Below, piece by piece: positions 50,193 to 56,366 of a DNA stretch of 64,000 bases. The stretch spans positions 1-64,000 of the forward strand of contig CBDBOV010000002.1 of the NCBI GenBank assembly GCA_965208575.1, written 5' to 3'. The position numbers and the translations under genes are program-made. The stretch is from Spirochaetia bacterium. GTDB lineage: Bacteria; Spirochaetota; Spirochaetia; SZUA-6; Bin103. Positions within the stretch are counted from its first letter, which is position 1; every line of letters begins with the position of its first letter. The notes below the pieces were generated by a model, which saw only the letters and a list, made by a program, of their open reading frames with translations, made no database searches and was not told where the DNA came from.

Positions 50193-50746
50193 ATGACAAT
50201 GCCCGGTCAGAGTCACATCGACCAAGTGCGCGACGCTCTTCGGCGCTGGCCCATAGGCGGCGCATCGGTCAGGAACCTGCGCGGTATCCGGGATTTGCGG
50301 GTGCCCTTCGACTATCCCGTCTGCGTTCTGGCCGGTCCCAACGGTTGCGGCAAATCGACGGTCCTGTTCGCATGTGCGTGCGCCTACCGCGTTCCGGGCC
50401 GCGGACCACGAGAGTTCGTCCCGAGTTTGCTGTTCCCGAATTTCGTGAGTCTTCAGCAGCCGGAGTTCTCGGACTCTGCCGCGCGCACCGAGATCGAGTT
50501 CCACTATCTGCACCACGGCGATCGGCTTTCCATGCTGTGGCGGCGTGGCAAGTCATGGGGGCGGAGCTACCTGGGCCGCACGGGTGTCGCGAGGCGAAAC
50601 CTGCCGTGGGGTCACTGGCGTCCGATCTCAATCGGACGGTTCCCGATGTGGCCCGGATCGTCGGCCAGCGGGAAGCCGAGGCGAACGCCATGCCCGAGTT
50701 GACCGGCGCGCTGGCCGAACAGATCAACGCCTGGAGTCGACTGTGA
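50193..50746 (+). pseudogene. ABC/OLD-like ATPase with large internal deletion
   Basis: VRNLRGI and Walker A GPNGCGKS; after about 50590 a C-terminal-like segment continues in another frame to TGA 50746. Confidence 0.7.
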
Positions 50747-51412
50747 CCGAGCAGCAACCCAATTCACCGAGGGACCAGCCCGCAGGCTCGGAGTGGAGCT
50801 GGCCCGGGGCGCGCTGGTGGCGCGTCGACCTCCATGCCCACTCCCCGGCGTCCCACGACTTCGGCAGCGAAGCCGACCGGGGCGATCCGGACTGGGTGGC
50901 CTGGATTACCGCTGCCCGTGACGCGGGTCTGGATGCCGTCGCTATTACCGATCACAACACGGCAGCGGGGGTAGGACCTCTCCAGGACGCGGCCTCGCGA
51001 GTGGAGAATAGTCCGGTTCTCTTTCCCGGTGTGGAAGTTACGGCCAGCGATGGCGTTCATCTGATAGTGTTGTTCGACCCGACTTGTAGCGACCAGTACA
51101 TTGAGGACTTTCTTTCCCGAGTGAAGATCCCGGTAGACAAGCGCGGCGATGACACTGCTCGATCATCGTTCAGCGTTGAACAGATTCTCGACGAGTGCCC
51201 CGATGACGCACTCATCGTCGGCCCGCACGTCAACCAGCCACGTGGACTGCTCGACCTCTCCGGGCAGGAACGGCGCGCGGTGTTGCGTCATGCGAGCCTC
51301 GCCGCGGTCGAGGTTGTCCCCGACTACCCTGTCGACGAGTCCTGGATCGACGGCAGCAGGTCGGAGATCGGGCGCAGGCTCCCGAGGCTATGGAGCTCGG
51401 ACAGCCACGCTC
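50743..51412 (+). pseudogene. PHP-domain/ATPase (TrlF-like) 5' part, interrupted by IS110
   Basis: DLHAHSPAS, AITDHN, PGVEVT, HLIVLF, SDSH. Confidence 0.85.
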
Positions 51413-52420
51413 CTGAGAAACAACAATCAGGCGGCCTCCGGGACAAGCTCATAACCGAGTGCGTGTGCCTGCCTTCGGAGCCGGCGTTCAAAGCGGCGCC
51501 GGTCCTGGCGCTCCTCGGCGGCGAGGAATCGTAGGCCACGCGATGCGTGATCAGATGGTAGATGATCCGAGCCAGTTTATGCGCGACTGCAGTGGTCGCT
51601 TCGGGAGTACCCAGACGCGCCCGCATGCGGCGGAAGTGCTGGCCCAGGGCCGATGGGCTGCGGTACAACGACTGGGTCGCCCAGTGCAGCGCCTCGATTG
51701 GTGCCCCGACCGGATAGTGTTGTTCGACCCGACTTGTAGCGACCAGTACATTGAGGACTTTCTTTCCCGAGTCCGCATCGATTCCCTCATCCGGTGGGTC
51801 GTCGACCGCGCCGGGTGAGATCCCGGTAGACAAGCGCGGCGATGACACTGCTCGATCATCGTTCAGCGTTGAACAGATTCTCGACGAGTGCCCCGATGAC
51901 GCACTCATCGTCGGCCCGCACGTCAACCAGCCACGTGGACTGCTCGACCTCTCCGGCCGTGGCAGGAACGGCGCGCGGTGTTGCGTCATGCGAGCCTCGC
52001 CGCGGTCGAGGTTGTCCCCGACTACCCTGTCGACGAGTCCTGGATCGACGGCAGCAGGTCGGAGATCGGGCGCAGGCTCCCGAGGCTATGGAGCTCGGAC
52101 AGCCACGCTCCTGAGAAACAACAATCAGGCGGCCTCCGGGACAAGCTCATAACCGAGTGCGTGTGCCTGCCTTCGGAGCCGGCGTTCAAAGCGGCGCCGG
52201 TCCTGGCGCTCCTCGGCGGCGAGGATGCTGTCATCGTAGGCCACGCGATGCGTGATCAGATGGTAGATGATCCGAGCCAGTTTATGCGCGACTGCAGTGG
52301 TCGCTTCGGGAGTACCCAGACGCGCCCGCATGCGGCGGAAGTGCTGGCCCAGGGCCGATGGGCTGCGGTACAACGACTGGGTCGCCCAGTGCAGCGCCTG
52401 GGCGGCCCGATTGGTGCCCC
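51063..52420. repeat. Imperfect tandem duplication (about 650-700 bp) of the PHP gene / IS110 junction, probably an assembly artefact
   Basis: 51063-51712 recurs from 51713 with small indels and a roughly 46-bp stray piece of IS110 sequence near 51772-51817. Confidence 0.85.
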
Positions 52421-53513
52421 GACCGGTGTGCGAGCTGATGATCTTGCCGCCGGTGATCTGGTTGTGGGGGCACAGGTGCAGCCAGGAGGCGAATTGCGGT
52501 GCGGTCGGAAAGCGGGACAGTTCCGGGCCGAGTTCGGTGAACAGAACCAGCGCCGTACTTTCGCCGATGCCGGGAATCAGCGTCAGGTCAGTGCCGAACA
52601 GGTGCGTAAGGTGGCCGCGCAGGTCGAACCGCTTGGCCGGTGACTCGGTTGGCGCCTCGGGCTCCGCATCGATTCCCTCATCCGGTGGGTCGTCGCCCAC
52701 CGCGCCGGGTGGCTCGCTGCTGGCTTCGAACGCGCGGATGCCGGCTTCGATTTCCTGATCGCACTCCGTGATGAGTTGTTGGTAGTGGGCATAGGTCGCT
52801 CGCGCGTGCCGCAACGCCAACAGGTGCTCGGCGCGCCAGTCGCCCTGCAGCGCCTTGATCAAGGTCTCGCGGCTGGCTTTGATCCGCCGGTCGGCCAGAG
52901 CGGCCAACCGCGCCGGATCCCGCTCACCCGCCAGGATAGCGTCCGTAATGGCCAGACCGGTCGTCCCCGTCAGGTCAGAGATGGCATGGTGCAGATGCAC
53001 GTTCATCTGGCTGTACGCCTTCTGCATGTGCAACACGCTGCGCGACGCCATCTTGATCAAGGTGTCGCGATGGCGCAGCACCGAGCGCAGTGCACACACC
53101 TCGTCGGCAGGGCGGAATGAGCCGCGCAGCAATCCCACCGAGTGCAGGTAGCGCAACCACTCGCAGTCGGCCACGTCGGACTTCCGACCGGGTACCGAGT
53201 GCACGTGACGCGCATTCACCAGCACCACGTCGAAGCCGTGTGCCTCCAGGATCTGATACACCGGAATCCAGTACACACCGGTGGACTCCATCGCCACCGT
53301 GGTGACCTCGCATTCCTTGAGCCAGTCGGCCAAGGCGTGCAGGTCCGCGGTGAACGTAGCAAAGTTCCGGATCGGGTCCGGGTCGCGCTCCGGGCGCACA
53401 GCCGCGTACACCTCGGTAGCGCCTATGTCCAAGCCGGCAGCGTCCGGGTGCATCACCTTTGGTTGCGCTGTGCGACTGCCCTTGCCCTTGCGTCTGTGTC
53501 TGCGTCGTGCCAT
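52125..53513 (-). CDS. IS110 DEDD recombinase/transposase
   Basis: GLDIG, MESTGVYW, KSDVADC, IPGIG; GGAGG RBS before ATG 53513. Confidence 0.95.
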   Translation of the reverse strand: MARRRHRRKGKGSRTAQPKVMHPDAAGLDIGATEVYAAVRPERDPDPIRNFATFTADLHALADWLKECEVTTVAMESTGVYWIPVYQILEAHGFDVVLVNARHVHSVPGRKSDVADCEWLRYLHSVGLLRGSFRPADEVCALRSVLRHRDTLIKMASRSVLHMQKAYSQMNVHLHHAISDLTGTTGLAITDAILAGERDPARLAALADRRIKASRETLIKALQGDWRAEHLLALRHARATYAHYQQLITECDQEIEAGIRAFEASSEPPGAVGDDPPDEGIDAEPEAPTESPAKRFDLRGHLTHLFGTDLTLIPGIGESTALVLFTELGPELSRFPTAPQFASWLHLCPHNQITGGKIISSHTGRGTNRAAQALHWATQSLYRSPSALGQHFRRMRARLGTPEATTAVAHKLARIIYHLITHRVAYDDSILAAEERQDRRRFERRLRRQAHALGYELVPEAA

Positions 53514-53519
53514 GAAACC

Positions 53520-53779
53520 TCCGCTACGACTGAGTGGTGCGGCCAAGGCGTGTGTAGCAGGTATTCTCCTGAACGGGATGATCGCCACCCGGCCGCGCCG
53601 GCTGACAACCTCACCAATGACTACGCCACCCGCCCCGGGGCCAAGCTCTTGAACGGGTTCGCAGAACGTAACGCCAGTGACGCGCCGGCCTACTTTCGCG
53701 CTCCACCCAGAACTCTGCCCACACTATAGCTCACCCTTGTTTCTTTCATGACTGCGCCGGCCCAGGGGCCGGTGGGATA
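53520..53779 (-). ncRNA. Putative IS110 bridge RNA in the non-coding end (boundaries approximate)
   Basis: About 265-bp non-coding end containing an 8-nt match to the target flank (53645-53652) and a 7-nt match to the element's other end (53566-53572). Confidence 0.65.
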
Positions 53780-53783
53780 GCTC

Positions 53784-54028
53784 TTGATCAGGTCGGCCGA
53801 CGATTCACGTGGATCAAGATGACCAGACCGGATGCCGGTGGTCTGCGCCTGGCGCTTCTCGACGGGGACGGTTCGGTACGGCCGACGGCGGCCGGTGATG
53901 CGGTCCACCCAAATTCTCATGCTGCATCGGCAATTGAGAGCATCCGCATCCACAAGGCCAAGTACCTGGGGCGCTCGGAGCCGCTGACCGTCCCGTTCAA
54001 CCCGTGGTTCAACACGATCATCGGCGGA
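53784..54028 (+). pseudogene. PHP/ATPase (TrlF-like) continuation, truncated at Walker A
   Basis: FTWIKMTRPDAGGLRLALLD...FNPWFNTIIGG, then an abrupt switch to other sequence. Confidence 0.8.
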
Positions 54029-54672
54029 TCGTGGGGAGCGATCCCGACGGTGTCACGCGCCTGACGTTGGCGGGCACTCTTCTGTGCACGTCGAGGCCGC
54101 AGGAGTGGTTGCCCCATGCTCAGATTCAGGCGGTGAGCTATGCAGGCGAGCGCCACGACGTAAACTACCAGACGGACGCGCGTGACATGGATGGCCCGCT
54201 GGACGTACAGATTGGGGACGCCTTGCACTTCGTGCGACGGAACATGCTCGTGCGCGCCACGAAAGTTACCGCCCGGGTGGAGCGGCCGCAATTCAGCGAG
54301 CGCGCGGTGTTCGAGGCGCTGGTGAACGCCGTGGCCCACCGAGACTACTCGATGGCAGGTGCTCGCGTTCGACTGCACCTGTTTGCCGATCGACTGGAGC
54401 TGTACGTGCCCGGAGATCTGGTCAATACGCTTACGATCGACAGCCTGCATCTGCGCCAGGCCAACCGTAATGAATTGATCGTGTCGCTGCTCGGACGCTG
54501 TCCTGCACCGGGCGGTCTCGGCCGCTCCCATCTCATGGACCGACGCGGGGACGGCGTTCCGATCATTCGGCGGGAGTGTCGAGAGTTGTCGGGCCGGCTT
54601 CCGGAATACGAACTGATCGATGACAGCGAGCTGCGCCTCATCATCCGCGCGGCGAATCCGGTTGAGCAGTAA
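54029..54672 (+). pseudogene. C-terminal fragment of AlbA/RecG-C (HATPase_c_4-type) ATP-binding protein
   Basis: TLAGTLL, EALVNAVAHRDYS, FADRLE...PG, RNELI, MDRRGDGV. Confidence 0.8.
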
Positions 54673-54819
54673 CGACGACGAGCGAACACTTGGTGTCCGG
54701 AGCTTCGATGTCGCGCCGGCACCTCCATCTTCCGACCTGCCGGCGGGACAGGGTGTCGTAGTATATTCGCCGGGCGAAGTCACGGTGGCTATGGGCATGA
54801 TCATGAAGAAGGGAACCAC

Positions 54820-56366
54820 ATGGCAGTAACGAATCACGAGCGGGTCGGCAAGCGGGCGTTATCAACAGGCGGAGTTCGCCGCCGATCTGTGGCAGGTGTT
54901 CCTCGGCGATGGATCTGACGAGTATCGCGACCCGGCGGAGTTTTTCCGTCGCACCTACCTGACCACGAGCCTGCGGCAGATGCTGGTCGGTGCGGTGCAG
55001 CGGCTCACCGGGCGGGGCGGCGATCCGGTCGTGCAACTGCAGACCAACTTCGGCGGCGGCAATGCCGGCCGAGCCGCCGGCCGTGTTCGGTGATGGGCTT
55101 CGGCGGCTGGCGACTGCCGCTACGTACCTGTACGAGGACAACGCGCGCTACTGGTTCGCCACCCAGCCCACGGTCACCAAGCTGGCGGAAGATCGAGCCG
55201 AGCAGATGCGGCGCAATCCGGACCGCGTGGTGCTTGAAATCGCCAAACGCGTGCGGGCCGACCTGCGCCAGAAGGGAGACTTCAGCCGGGTGCACCCGTT
55301 GCCGCACTCGGGCCAGGACGTGCCCGACGACATGGACGCACGGCTCGTCGTTGTGGGAATCGAGTACCCGCACAGCCGGGGCGGTGAGAGCCCCGCACTC
55401 AAGCAGGCGCAGGCGATTCTGGAGTCACGCGGCACTGCGCCGCGCATCTACCGCAACACGCTGGTGTTTCTCGCCGCCGACGCCACCCGCCTGCAGGAGC
55501 TCGACGAGGCGGTGCGGCGCTTTCTGGCCTGGGAGTCGATCGTCGCCGATCAGGAGCACCTCAATCTGGCCCCGCAGCAGGTGCGGCAGGCGGAAACGCA
55601 GCGCGAGGTTGCGGCAACCGAGGTGACGACCCGGATTCCCGAGACCTACCGGTGGCTGCTGGTGCCGGGACAGTCCGACCCGCACGGAGCGGCCACGTGG
55701 GAGACCTTGAACCTGACGGGGTCCGACCCGCTTGCGGTTCGTGCATCCCGCCGGCTGCGGGATCAGGACGGACTCCTGACCGCGTACGCCGCGACCCTCT
55801 TGCGAATGGAGCTGGACCGCGTTCCGCTCTGGCGCGGCGATCATGTGTCGGTCTCCCAGCTCGCCGAGGACTTCGCCCGCTACCTCTACCTGCCCCGTCT
55901 CAGGGGACCGGAGGTGCTGCTGCGCACCATCGACGACGGGGTGTCCCTGATCACCTGGGAGCAGGAGACCTTCGCATTCGCCGAGAGCTTCGACGAAGAT
56001 GCCAAACGCTACCGCGCGCTGCGCGTCCAGGATCGGATCAACCTGCCCGACGCAAGTGCTCCGGGAGTGCTCGTCAAGCCCGCGGTGGCCCGGCAGCAAC
56101 TCGATAAGGTAGAGCCCCCGCCGCCGCCACCACCCCCACCGCCGCCGCCGAACGGTGGTGGCAACGGCCCGGGTCCCCCACCACCACCGCCGCCTCGGCT
56201 GCTAAAGCGCTTCCACGGTGCCGTGGCGCTCGACGCCACCCGCGTCGGCCGCGACGCCAGCCAGATTGCCGACGAGGTGATCGCCCATCTCGCCGGGCTG
56301 GTAGGGGCCAACGTGACCGTTACGCTGGAGATAGAGGCCGAGATGCCGGGCGGCGCCCCCGAGCAC
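54820..56366 (+). pseudogene. DUF499-like AAA ATPase with multiple internal deletions
   Basis: MAVTNHERVGK | GRYQQAEFAADLWQV...LQTNFGGG | MPAEPPAVFGD...RNTLVFLAAD...poly-Pro...KRFHG; three pieces in different frames. Confidence 0.8.

Follow-up and report, generated by a model that had tools for sequence, protein, structure and literature searches.

The guidance of IS110-family elements by a bridge RNA, also called a seekRNA, has been known since 2024. In the published passages on IS621 that are cited here, each loop of this RNA has the order stem, left guide, stem-loop, right guide and stem, with a C-G-U linker before the left guide (PMC11208160, PMC11208158). The sections of Siddiquee et al. 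(PMC11187229) used for comparison place the top-strand match 5' of the bottom-strand match in seekRNAs of the IS1111 type, while the order is reversed in ISEc21, which is of the IS110 type. The same sections describe subterminal inverted repeats and a downstream non-coding region as features of the IS1111 elements, with few exceptions, and the repeats are given in the cited part of Durrant et al. as 7-17 bp long in IS1111 and as 2-3 bp long in the IS110 group. The part of a preprint (bioRxiv 10.64898/2026.10.21.760802) that we draw on lists 32,190 predicted bridge RNAs and 86 covariance models, and states that many of the models depart visibly from the structure of IS621 and yet covary with target and donor. 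Here, we describe an IS110-family element in the first 64,000 nucleotides of contig CBDBOV010000002.1 from a Spirochaetia bacterium (GenBank assembly GCA_965208575.1), a stretch of DNA that we refer to as the window. An earlier note on this DNA had suggested that the element represents a new bridge recombinase, and that its non-coding end encodes guides to its own target and donor.

The element (52108-53780, minus strand) is an insertion sequence of the IS110 family, and very probably a recently active one that chooses its site via a bridge RNA encoded in its 267-nt leader. It is 1673 bp long with the shared GAG counted once, and its boundaries are defined by 15 identical copies, by the sequences at their junctions and by a contig from a public sequencing run, X1, which skips exactly 1673 nt. 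It consists of the 267-nt 5' leader at the left end (53514-53780, minus strand), a gene for a recombinase of 462 amino acids with a DEDD and a Tnp domain, and a 17-nt 3' end. In the sense of the element, the leader contains two motifs that are each preceded by CCCGU, of which the target-matching one comes first and the donor-matching one second. The left target guide, UCAAGAG (53646-53652, minus strand), is identical to the left target half, sense TCAAGAG (53781-53787, minus strand), which is located within the interrupted host open reading frame (ORF) and was placed by the junction sequences and the rebuilt sites. The left donor guide, UCAGGAG (53566-53572, minus strand), is identical to the left donor half, sense TCAGGAG, which forms the last 7 nt of the right end (52108-52114, minus strand). 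The match of the guides to the flank and to the element end is real and far beyond chance. The earlier note had already reported this arrangement, including the order of the motifs and their CCCGU, from the plus-strand occurrences of GCTCTTGA at 53645-53652 and 53780-53787, of CTCCTGA at 53566-53572 and 52108-52114, and of GCTC at 52107-52110 and 53780-53783, all of which we recovered at these positions.

The genome (6.5 Mb in six contigs) contains 15 copies of the element that are 100% identical over 1669 nt. In gene sense, TCAAGAG is located directly 5' of the leader in 14 of the 15 copies, which correspond to all 14 independent sites, and the insertions have a single orientation. The proposal was thereby exposed to the refutation that had been named for it, namely that other copies would be flanked by unrelated sequences, and it withstood it. 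The 15th copy is the downstream member of a head-to-tail pair on contig C4 (1265902-1269243) and has the element's own end, TCAGGAG, 5' of its leader. The two full copies in this pair are 4 nt apart (sense GAGC), which is the same junction as in a circle. A joint between the left and the right end, as predicted for the circle, is also carried by a contig from an independent run, X5, which runs from 53779 back to 52107 and represents either a circle or a tandem. A junction of this kind, with the core between the right and the left end, is expected of IS110-family elements. The empty site at the same locus is seen in the X1 contig, which joins 52106 directly to 53780 with four ambiguous letters. 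The proposed restoration of the host frame upon excision agrees with this contig and with the removal of the 1673 nt in silico, after which the plus-strand frame stays open across the joint. The sequencing depth in X1 is approximately 500 over the element and 20-32 on its flanks.

Only GAG (CTC on the plus strand) is common to both junctions in all copies. On the leader side, the fourth junction base belongs to the element, of which it is the first base, whereas on the other side it comes from the target and is C in 10 of the 15 cases, T in three, and A and G in one each. Since this base differs by junction, the match between guide and flank that holds in all copies is 7 nt (53646-53652 and 53781-53787) and not 8 nt. 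Thus, the description of GCTC on both sides and of an 8-nt guide match is correct within the window, but across the copies it has to be narrowed to GAG and 7 nt. As GAG is common to target and donor, the strand exchange must lie inside it. Insertion is thus site- and orientation-specific and produces no target duplication beyond the short shared core, as is characteristic of the IS110 family. In the 14 rebuilt sites, positions -7 to -1 are invariant, and there are weaker preferences (n = 14) for C at -8 (11 sites), A at -13 (11), C at -12 (9), T at -11 (8), C at +1 (9) and G at +2 (8). In the right target half, sense CGTGGCTG (52100-52107, minus strand), +1 and +2 are the only positions with a preference over all sites, and it is a weak one.

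We identified related loci on genome contigs (53 loci, best 69% amino-acid identity) and on metagenome contigs (80 loci, best 75%). Their leaders contain two occurrences of a motif in which C-[CUA]-C-G-N precedes five variable bases and AG. Among the 96 loci that have both guide motifs and sufficient upstream DNA, an exact match to the target guide of the same locus is present 95-180 nt upstream in 30, and a match with no more than one mismatch in 69. For comparison, guides taken from other loci, with at least three differences, match exactly in 31 of 5090 cases (0.6%) and with at most one mismatch in 562 of 5090 (11%). In total, 27 different target guides are represented in the relatives. For the donor guide, identity with the sequence that immediately follows the stop codon was seen in 45 of the 69 loci that have both motifs and a left-end boundary, with seven distinct guides that are each equal to their own right end; the other 24 loci either lack the 3' end in the retrieved DNA or have no exact match. 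A column-by-position test on 29 non-redundant rows showed that guide positions 0-4 equal the partner DNA at positions -7 to -3, with z-scores of 5.1-8.1 overall and of 5.8-8.1 for the left target guide, and the same diagonals reappear on the model-based alignment. The guides of locus L024, CCCAAAG and UUAGAAG, are unlike each other, and each follows its own partner. A truncated relative in the same genome as the studied element (locus L017, C4:146594-146768) has a gene cut to 153 codons and 74% nucleotide identity over the matching part, and its guide UGUCAAG is identical to its flank TGTCAAG. The suggestion of an IS110 element with a target-matching and then a donor-matching guide in its 5' non-coding end is thus borne out by covariation in the relatives, both between guide and flank and between guide and element end.

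The sharing of 7-mers between the leader and the 3' end was also tried as a measure and was rejected. Such sharing is seen in 31 of 34 loci, and the control with mismatched pairs (809 of 1122) is uninformative because most relatives carry the same donor guide. As a separate observation, two fragments resembling guide modules are present outside the left end of L022, the closest genome relative (positions 845-870 and 1206-1231, 361 nt apart). Both consist of CCCGU and the element's own donor guide, which suggests that L022 was inserted next to remnants of a related element.

The candidate bridge RNA core (53535-53699, minus strand) was identified with a covariance model, R1, that was built from 23 relatives with the studied element left out. 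The element matches the model over its full length with 89.7 bits (E = 2.7e-24), so that the covariance-model check recommended for the leader returned a conserved fold. This is the sole match in the window. The 17 matches in the element's own genome comprise the 15 copies, the truncated relative and a weak match of 27 bits at C4:498536-498694, and a further search gave 95 matches in 100 sources, mostly contigs of soil, peat and marine metagenome-assembled genomes (MAGs) and metagenomes. RNAalifold predicted four helices with compensatory changes from 24 aligned leaders, and a fifth helix was added by analogy. In this alignment, 96.1% of 635 cells are standard pairs, as compared to 85.2% in shuffled alignments (0 of 500) and 25-48% in slid ones, and 15 of the 27 pairs change on both sides. 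The corresponding values for 85 distinct rows, in an alignment that was fitted to the model and leans towards it, are 96.9% of cells and 18 of 27 pairs. At several of the pairs, nearly all rows have G-U (23-24 of the 24 sequences at four pairs), which fits an RNA of the minus strand.

The target module (53639-53690, minus strand) is closed by helix 1, formed by GGCCG (53686-53690) and UGGCC (53639-53643), in which 100% and 99.8% of the cells are paired. Its interior consists of a 9-nt strand (53677-53685), stem-loop 1, a linker U, the target guide (53646-53652) and CU. Stem-loop 1 (UGGCGUU ... AACCCG; 53654-53676, minus strand) is located directly 5' of the left target guide and contains helix 2, with 91-93% of the cells paired. 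The donor module is enclosed by a long-range helix (helix 3; 53543-53638, minus strand) of CCGGGG (53633-53638) and CCUUGG (53543-53548), in which five of the six pairs in the 24 leaders and all six pairs in the 85 rows change on both sides. It is built like the target module, with a short inner helix (helix 4; 53627-53629 with 53561-53563, minus strand), a 10-nt strand (53617-53626), stem-loop 2, a linker U, the guide (53566-53572) and AA. Stem-loop 2 (UGGUGAGG ... UCAUCCCG; 53574-53616, minus strand) is located directly 5' of the left donor guide and contains helix 5, which is 99% paired and has four to five pairs that change on both sides. In both of these homologous modules, a single linker base separates a conserved stem-loop, which ends in CCCG, from a 7-nt guide, which ends in AG. 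Approximately 25 nt upstream of the modelled RNA, inspection revealed a TATAGT sequence (53723-53728, minus strand) that could be the -10 box of the leader RNA, and a TAnnnT box is present at the equivalent place in the relatives.

The guide matches continue beyond the AG. In the relatives, the two bases after the target guide equal the first two bases of the left end in 0.97 and 0.72 of the rows (z = 4.7), and the nucleotide that follows the donor guide is the same as the one that opens the right target flank in 0.72 of the rows (z = 4.0). Each left guide thus runs into the sequence that its DNA half joins only after recombination. In the studied element, the CU after the target guide (53644-53645) matches the CT of the left end, while the AA after the donor guide (53564-53565) does not match its right flanks. 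The element also contains a subterminal inverted repeat of 7 bp. The right copy, sense TTGTTTC (52115-52121, minus strand), covers positions -14 to -8 of the right end, and the left copy, GAAACAA (53737-53743, minus strand), is located 38 nt inside the left end. The same relation with at most one mismatch is found in 32 of 45 relatives and in 42 of 422 foreign controls.

The right guides were sought 3' of the left guides, as in the IS621 layout, and no consistent segment was found there. In the relatives, the right target guide is located 5' of the left target guide. Here, a 6-nt segment whose last base lies three bases before the UGG in stem-loop 1 pairs with G(-1) and with +1 to +5 in the right flank. 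Over 41 non-redundant rows, 4.49 of 6 positions are paired, as compared to 3.40 ± 0.19 over 2000 shuffles, none of which reached 4.49. The matched variants include GCCGAC with GTCGGC, GGGGAC with GTCCCC, and UUGAC with GTCAG. The homologous position in the studied element holds GCGCGUC (53679-53685, minus strand), on the 5' side of the target module, which we tentatively regard as its right target guide. With U53680 bulged, this segment pairs at 4.0 of 6 positions with the occupied sites and at 3.19 with the unoccupied ones (p = 0.0023, with three registers tried). The order in which the top-strand match lies 5' of the bottom-strand match is therefore seen in the relatives, and in the studied copy only with one bulged base. 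A weak candidate for the right donor guide, GGUGGCGUAG (53621-53630, minus strand), was found by eye and pairs with left-end bases 1-10 at 9 of 10 positions in the same bulged register. L076 and L022, the closest relatives, do not retain it. A cross signal with the right target flank (3.41 vs 2.89) was furthermore seen for the 5' side of the donor module, and it may derive from shared ancestry.

Taken together with the homology to IS621 and ISEc21, these features suggest how the element could move. The element would leave as a circle in which the right end, GAG and the left end are joined. An RNA would be transcribed from the leader and bound by the recombinase, with its DEDD and Tnp domains and with T354 at the place of S241 in IS621, and its two loops would position the target next to the donor so that strands can be exchanged at the shared AG. 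The target guide, as the top strand of the left target half, could pair with the bottom strand there, and the donor guide has the sequence of the element's own right end. Each loop may be regarded as a circular permutation of the IS621 loop, with the order closing helix, right guide, stem-loop, left guide and closing helix, and the donor module would sit inside the long-range helix. In a loop permuted in this manner, the right guides are expected on the 5' strands, with which the target loop agrees in the relatives. The one to two nucleotides after each left guide, which match the right flank of the partner, could pair with the product after bottom-strand exchange. Because they would pair only with the recombined product, they may constitute a bottom-strand "handshake" that mirrors the top-strand handshake guides of IS621.

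Several observations speak against such a guided insertion, or against parts of the proposed layout. In the register of the relatives, the right target guide of the studied copy pairs at only 2 of 6 positions, and the 14 occupied sites pair less well with it than the unoccupied sites (2.36 vs 2.98). For the right donor guide, neither the fixed-register nor the matrix tests gave a covariation signal. Most relatives come from few clades, and the shuffle tests overstate their independence. Folded on its own, the leader does no better than shuffled sequences (z = -0.5). In its minimum-energy structure, the target module is paired with the initial bases of the left end, which probably does not matter if the RNA starts within the leader. 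A search of 51000-55000 against Rfam 15 had no matches with E values of 10 or below, with the presence of a bridge RNA family in Rfam left unchecked, and a scan for consensus promoters and terminators found no promoter-like site and no terminator. No transcript was seen in the RNA run X20, which yielded contigs on parts of the recombinase gene only (95-96% identity) and none over the leader.

Another such observation is that 317 further TCAAGAG sites in the genome are empty. It follows that the 7-nt match is necessary but not sufficient for target choice, and the notion that the guide determines the target therefore holds for the flank match and falls short as a complete account. Compared with the empty sites, the occupied sites are enriched for T at -15 (p = 0.0012), A at -13 (p = 0.0005), T at -11 (p = 0.0004) and C at -8 (p = 0.0003), while on the right side only G at +2 is weakly enriched (p = 0.04). 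The full series of preferred bases in the occupied sites is T, A, C, T, T and C at -15, -13, -12, -11, -10 and -8, and those at -11, -10 and -8 are also present in the donor end. The extra preferences at -15, -13, -11 and -8 fit no RNA complement better than chance, and they may be read by the protein or via the inverted repeat. Among the candidates that were rejected, the best leader complements to positions -17 to -8 were reached by 126 and 48 of 200 shuffled leaders, and a pairing of AGUC (53622-53619) or GAAAGU with target positions -14 to -8 had no support in the relatives.

Some of these difficulties would be resolved if the leader encodes a real bridge RNA with the canonical IS621 layout, and the permuted, nested architecture is an artefact of the alignment and the few clades. 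The deviation of the studied copy from the relatives' register and the failure of covariation to find a right donor guide both point in this direction, as do the noise in the column-by-position matrices and the fitting of the larger alignment, A3, to the structure of the model. We nevertheless consider this explanation unlikely, since RNAalifold gave four of the five helices unprompted, the slid controls drop to 25-50% paired, and the 5-nt helix between the sequence after the left target guide and a strand approximately 40 nt upstream is paired in 99.8-100% of the cells. Moreover, no segment that pairs with the core and the right flank was found between the left target guide and the donor module.

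Other explanations dispense with a guide RNA altogether. The leader motifs could be protein-binding DNA repeats, with the recombinase itself reading TCA(A/G)GAG and the target resembling the guide only via its likeness to the donor (7 of 8 bases). This would account for why the left halves of target and donor differ at one base only in the studied element, for the T(-11), T(-10) and C(-8) that are common to the occupied sites and the donor end, and for the missing transcript. It is very improbable, however, given that the two guides of the relatives differ at many positions and each tracks its own partner, that the conserved fold includes G-U pairs, which exist only on the sense strand, and that the RNA was required in experiments on family members, according to the cited portions of PMC11208160 and PMC11187229. 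Even less credible is a role of the guides as single-stranded DNA of the element end, as in IS200/IS605. RNA and DNA are not separable by sequence identity alone, but the guides lie within the leader at a depth of 128-214 nt and belong to a conserved fold with many G-U pairs, and the protein is a DEDD/Tnp recombinase and not an HUH enzyme. We therefore retain the choice of the site via a bridge RNA encoded in the leader as the preferred explanation.

The recombinase gene (52125-53513, minus strand) encodes 462 amino acids and is preceded by a GGAGG ribosome-binding site at 53518-53522. The protein contains a DEDD_Tnp_IS110 domain (PF01548, E = 6.4e-20) followed by a Transposase_20 domain (PF02371, E = 1.5e-11), both above the gathering scores. 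It scores 251 bits against NCBIfam NF033542 (cut-off 140), which is named "IS110 family RNA-guided transposase", so that the protein is new as a member of the family but belongs to a type of recombinase that already has a name. The sole solved relative by sequence is the IS621 recombinase chain 8wt6_A (E = 1.3e-7), with a local alignment mainly in the C-terminal domain. In this alignment, T354 of the recombinase corresponds to the catalytic serine of IS621 (S241), and most relatives have a serine at this position while a few have a threonine.

The interrupted plus-strand ORF has a weak match to a PHP domain (E = 0.0034), which is below the cut-off. In this neighbourhood (50193-50702, 50545-51408 and 53819-54672), a fragment of an AAA_23/AAA_15-like ATPase is located before the interrupted ORF and a HATPase_c_4 protein after it. 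There is overlap between the frames, and a stop codon ends a P-loop-like stretch that follows 53819; some of the genes next to the insertion may be pseudogenes. Immediately upstream of the element, there is a mosaic duplicate, in which 51063-51817 corresponds to 51713-52711. Stretches of host DNA (60, 139 and 146 nt long) and approximately the first 305 nt of the element's right-end side recur with 100% identity at offsets of 650-705 nt, and the second host copy is interrupted by a 46-nt piece from inside the element (like 52663-52711). At 51957-51961, letters in the X1 and X5 contigs disagree with the window. This suggests that the mosaic at 51063-51817 is an assembly artefact in a population that was mixed for the insertion, and a real rearrangement is possible. 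In the runs X9-X19, which are labelled as coral reef, sponge and marine metagenome, 0.22-0.55 of the words sampled from 51000-54000 were found, which says nothing firm about the habitat.

The locus represents a clean natural case, with 15 identical copies of the element, 14 insertion sites, one empty allele and one head-to-tail junction in a single genome and its public reads. It also points to a clade of large proteins (approximately 440-460 amino acids) whose RNA seems to be wired unlike that of IS621. Should this layout and the extensions that match the product prove to be real and undescribed, they would be relevant to the relation of the two groups of the family, and to the design of guides for orthologues from this clade.

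In the comparisons that follow, the known systems are taken as described in the cited parts of the publications. Like IS621, the element has a recombinase with DEDD and Tnp domains, a left end that is long and precedes the gene, a short right end, a target loop before the donor loop, and a C-G-U linker before the left guide. The left guides also equal the top strand of the left target and donor halves including the shared core, as in IS621, and there is no target duplication beyond the core. Unlike IS621, the protein is 462 amino acids long rather than 326, only its Tnp domain aligns clearly, and it has a threonine in place of the catalytic serine. Furthermore, the core is AG (GAG) and not CT, and the left guides are 7 nt rather than 8-9 nt long and are placed 3' of the stem-loop, where those of IS621 are 5', in a loop whose closing helix involves a strand further upstream. 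A long-range helix surrounds the donor module, and the inverted repeat is 7 bp as compared to 2-3 bp.

The similarities to the IS1111-type elements (ISEc11, ISPa11 and ISKpn4) are the placement of the top-strand-complementary segment 5' of the bottom-strand-complementary one, as seen in the relatives and, with one bulged base, perhaps in the studied copy, a subterminal repeat of at least 7 bp, and an S/T-G motif in the C-terminal domain. However, the non-coding region is located upstream of the gene here and downstream there, the protein has 462 amino acids here and 330-350 there, and the left copy of the repeat is 38 nt inside the left end and not at the junction. Like the element, ISEc21 (PMC11187229) has its non-coding region upstream of the gene, carries guides to the two strands of a linear target and causes no duplication, but its top-strand match is 3' of the bottom-strand match, whereas it is 5' in the studied clade. 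With regard to the two groups, the long non-coding end upstream of the gene (267 nt) and the short end downstream (17 nt) are as expected for the IS110 group. The RNA-bearing non-coding region downstream of the gene that is typical of the IS1111 group is not seen, as the downstream end is only 17 nt long and the match to the covariance model is upstream. Yet IS110-group elements have no subterminal repeat, or one of only 2-3 bp, and here it is the 7-bp TTGTTTC/GAAACAA. The clade thus combines the RNA position of the IS110 type with the guide order and the repeat of the IS1111 type. It is conceivable, albeit rather doubtful, that it represents an undescribed intermediate between IS110 and IS1111, with an upstream RNA, permuted loops, a nested donor module, a 7-bp repeat and "handshake" extensions that would pair with the product.

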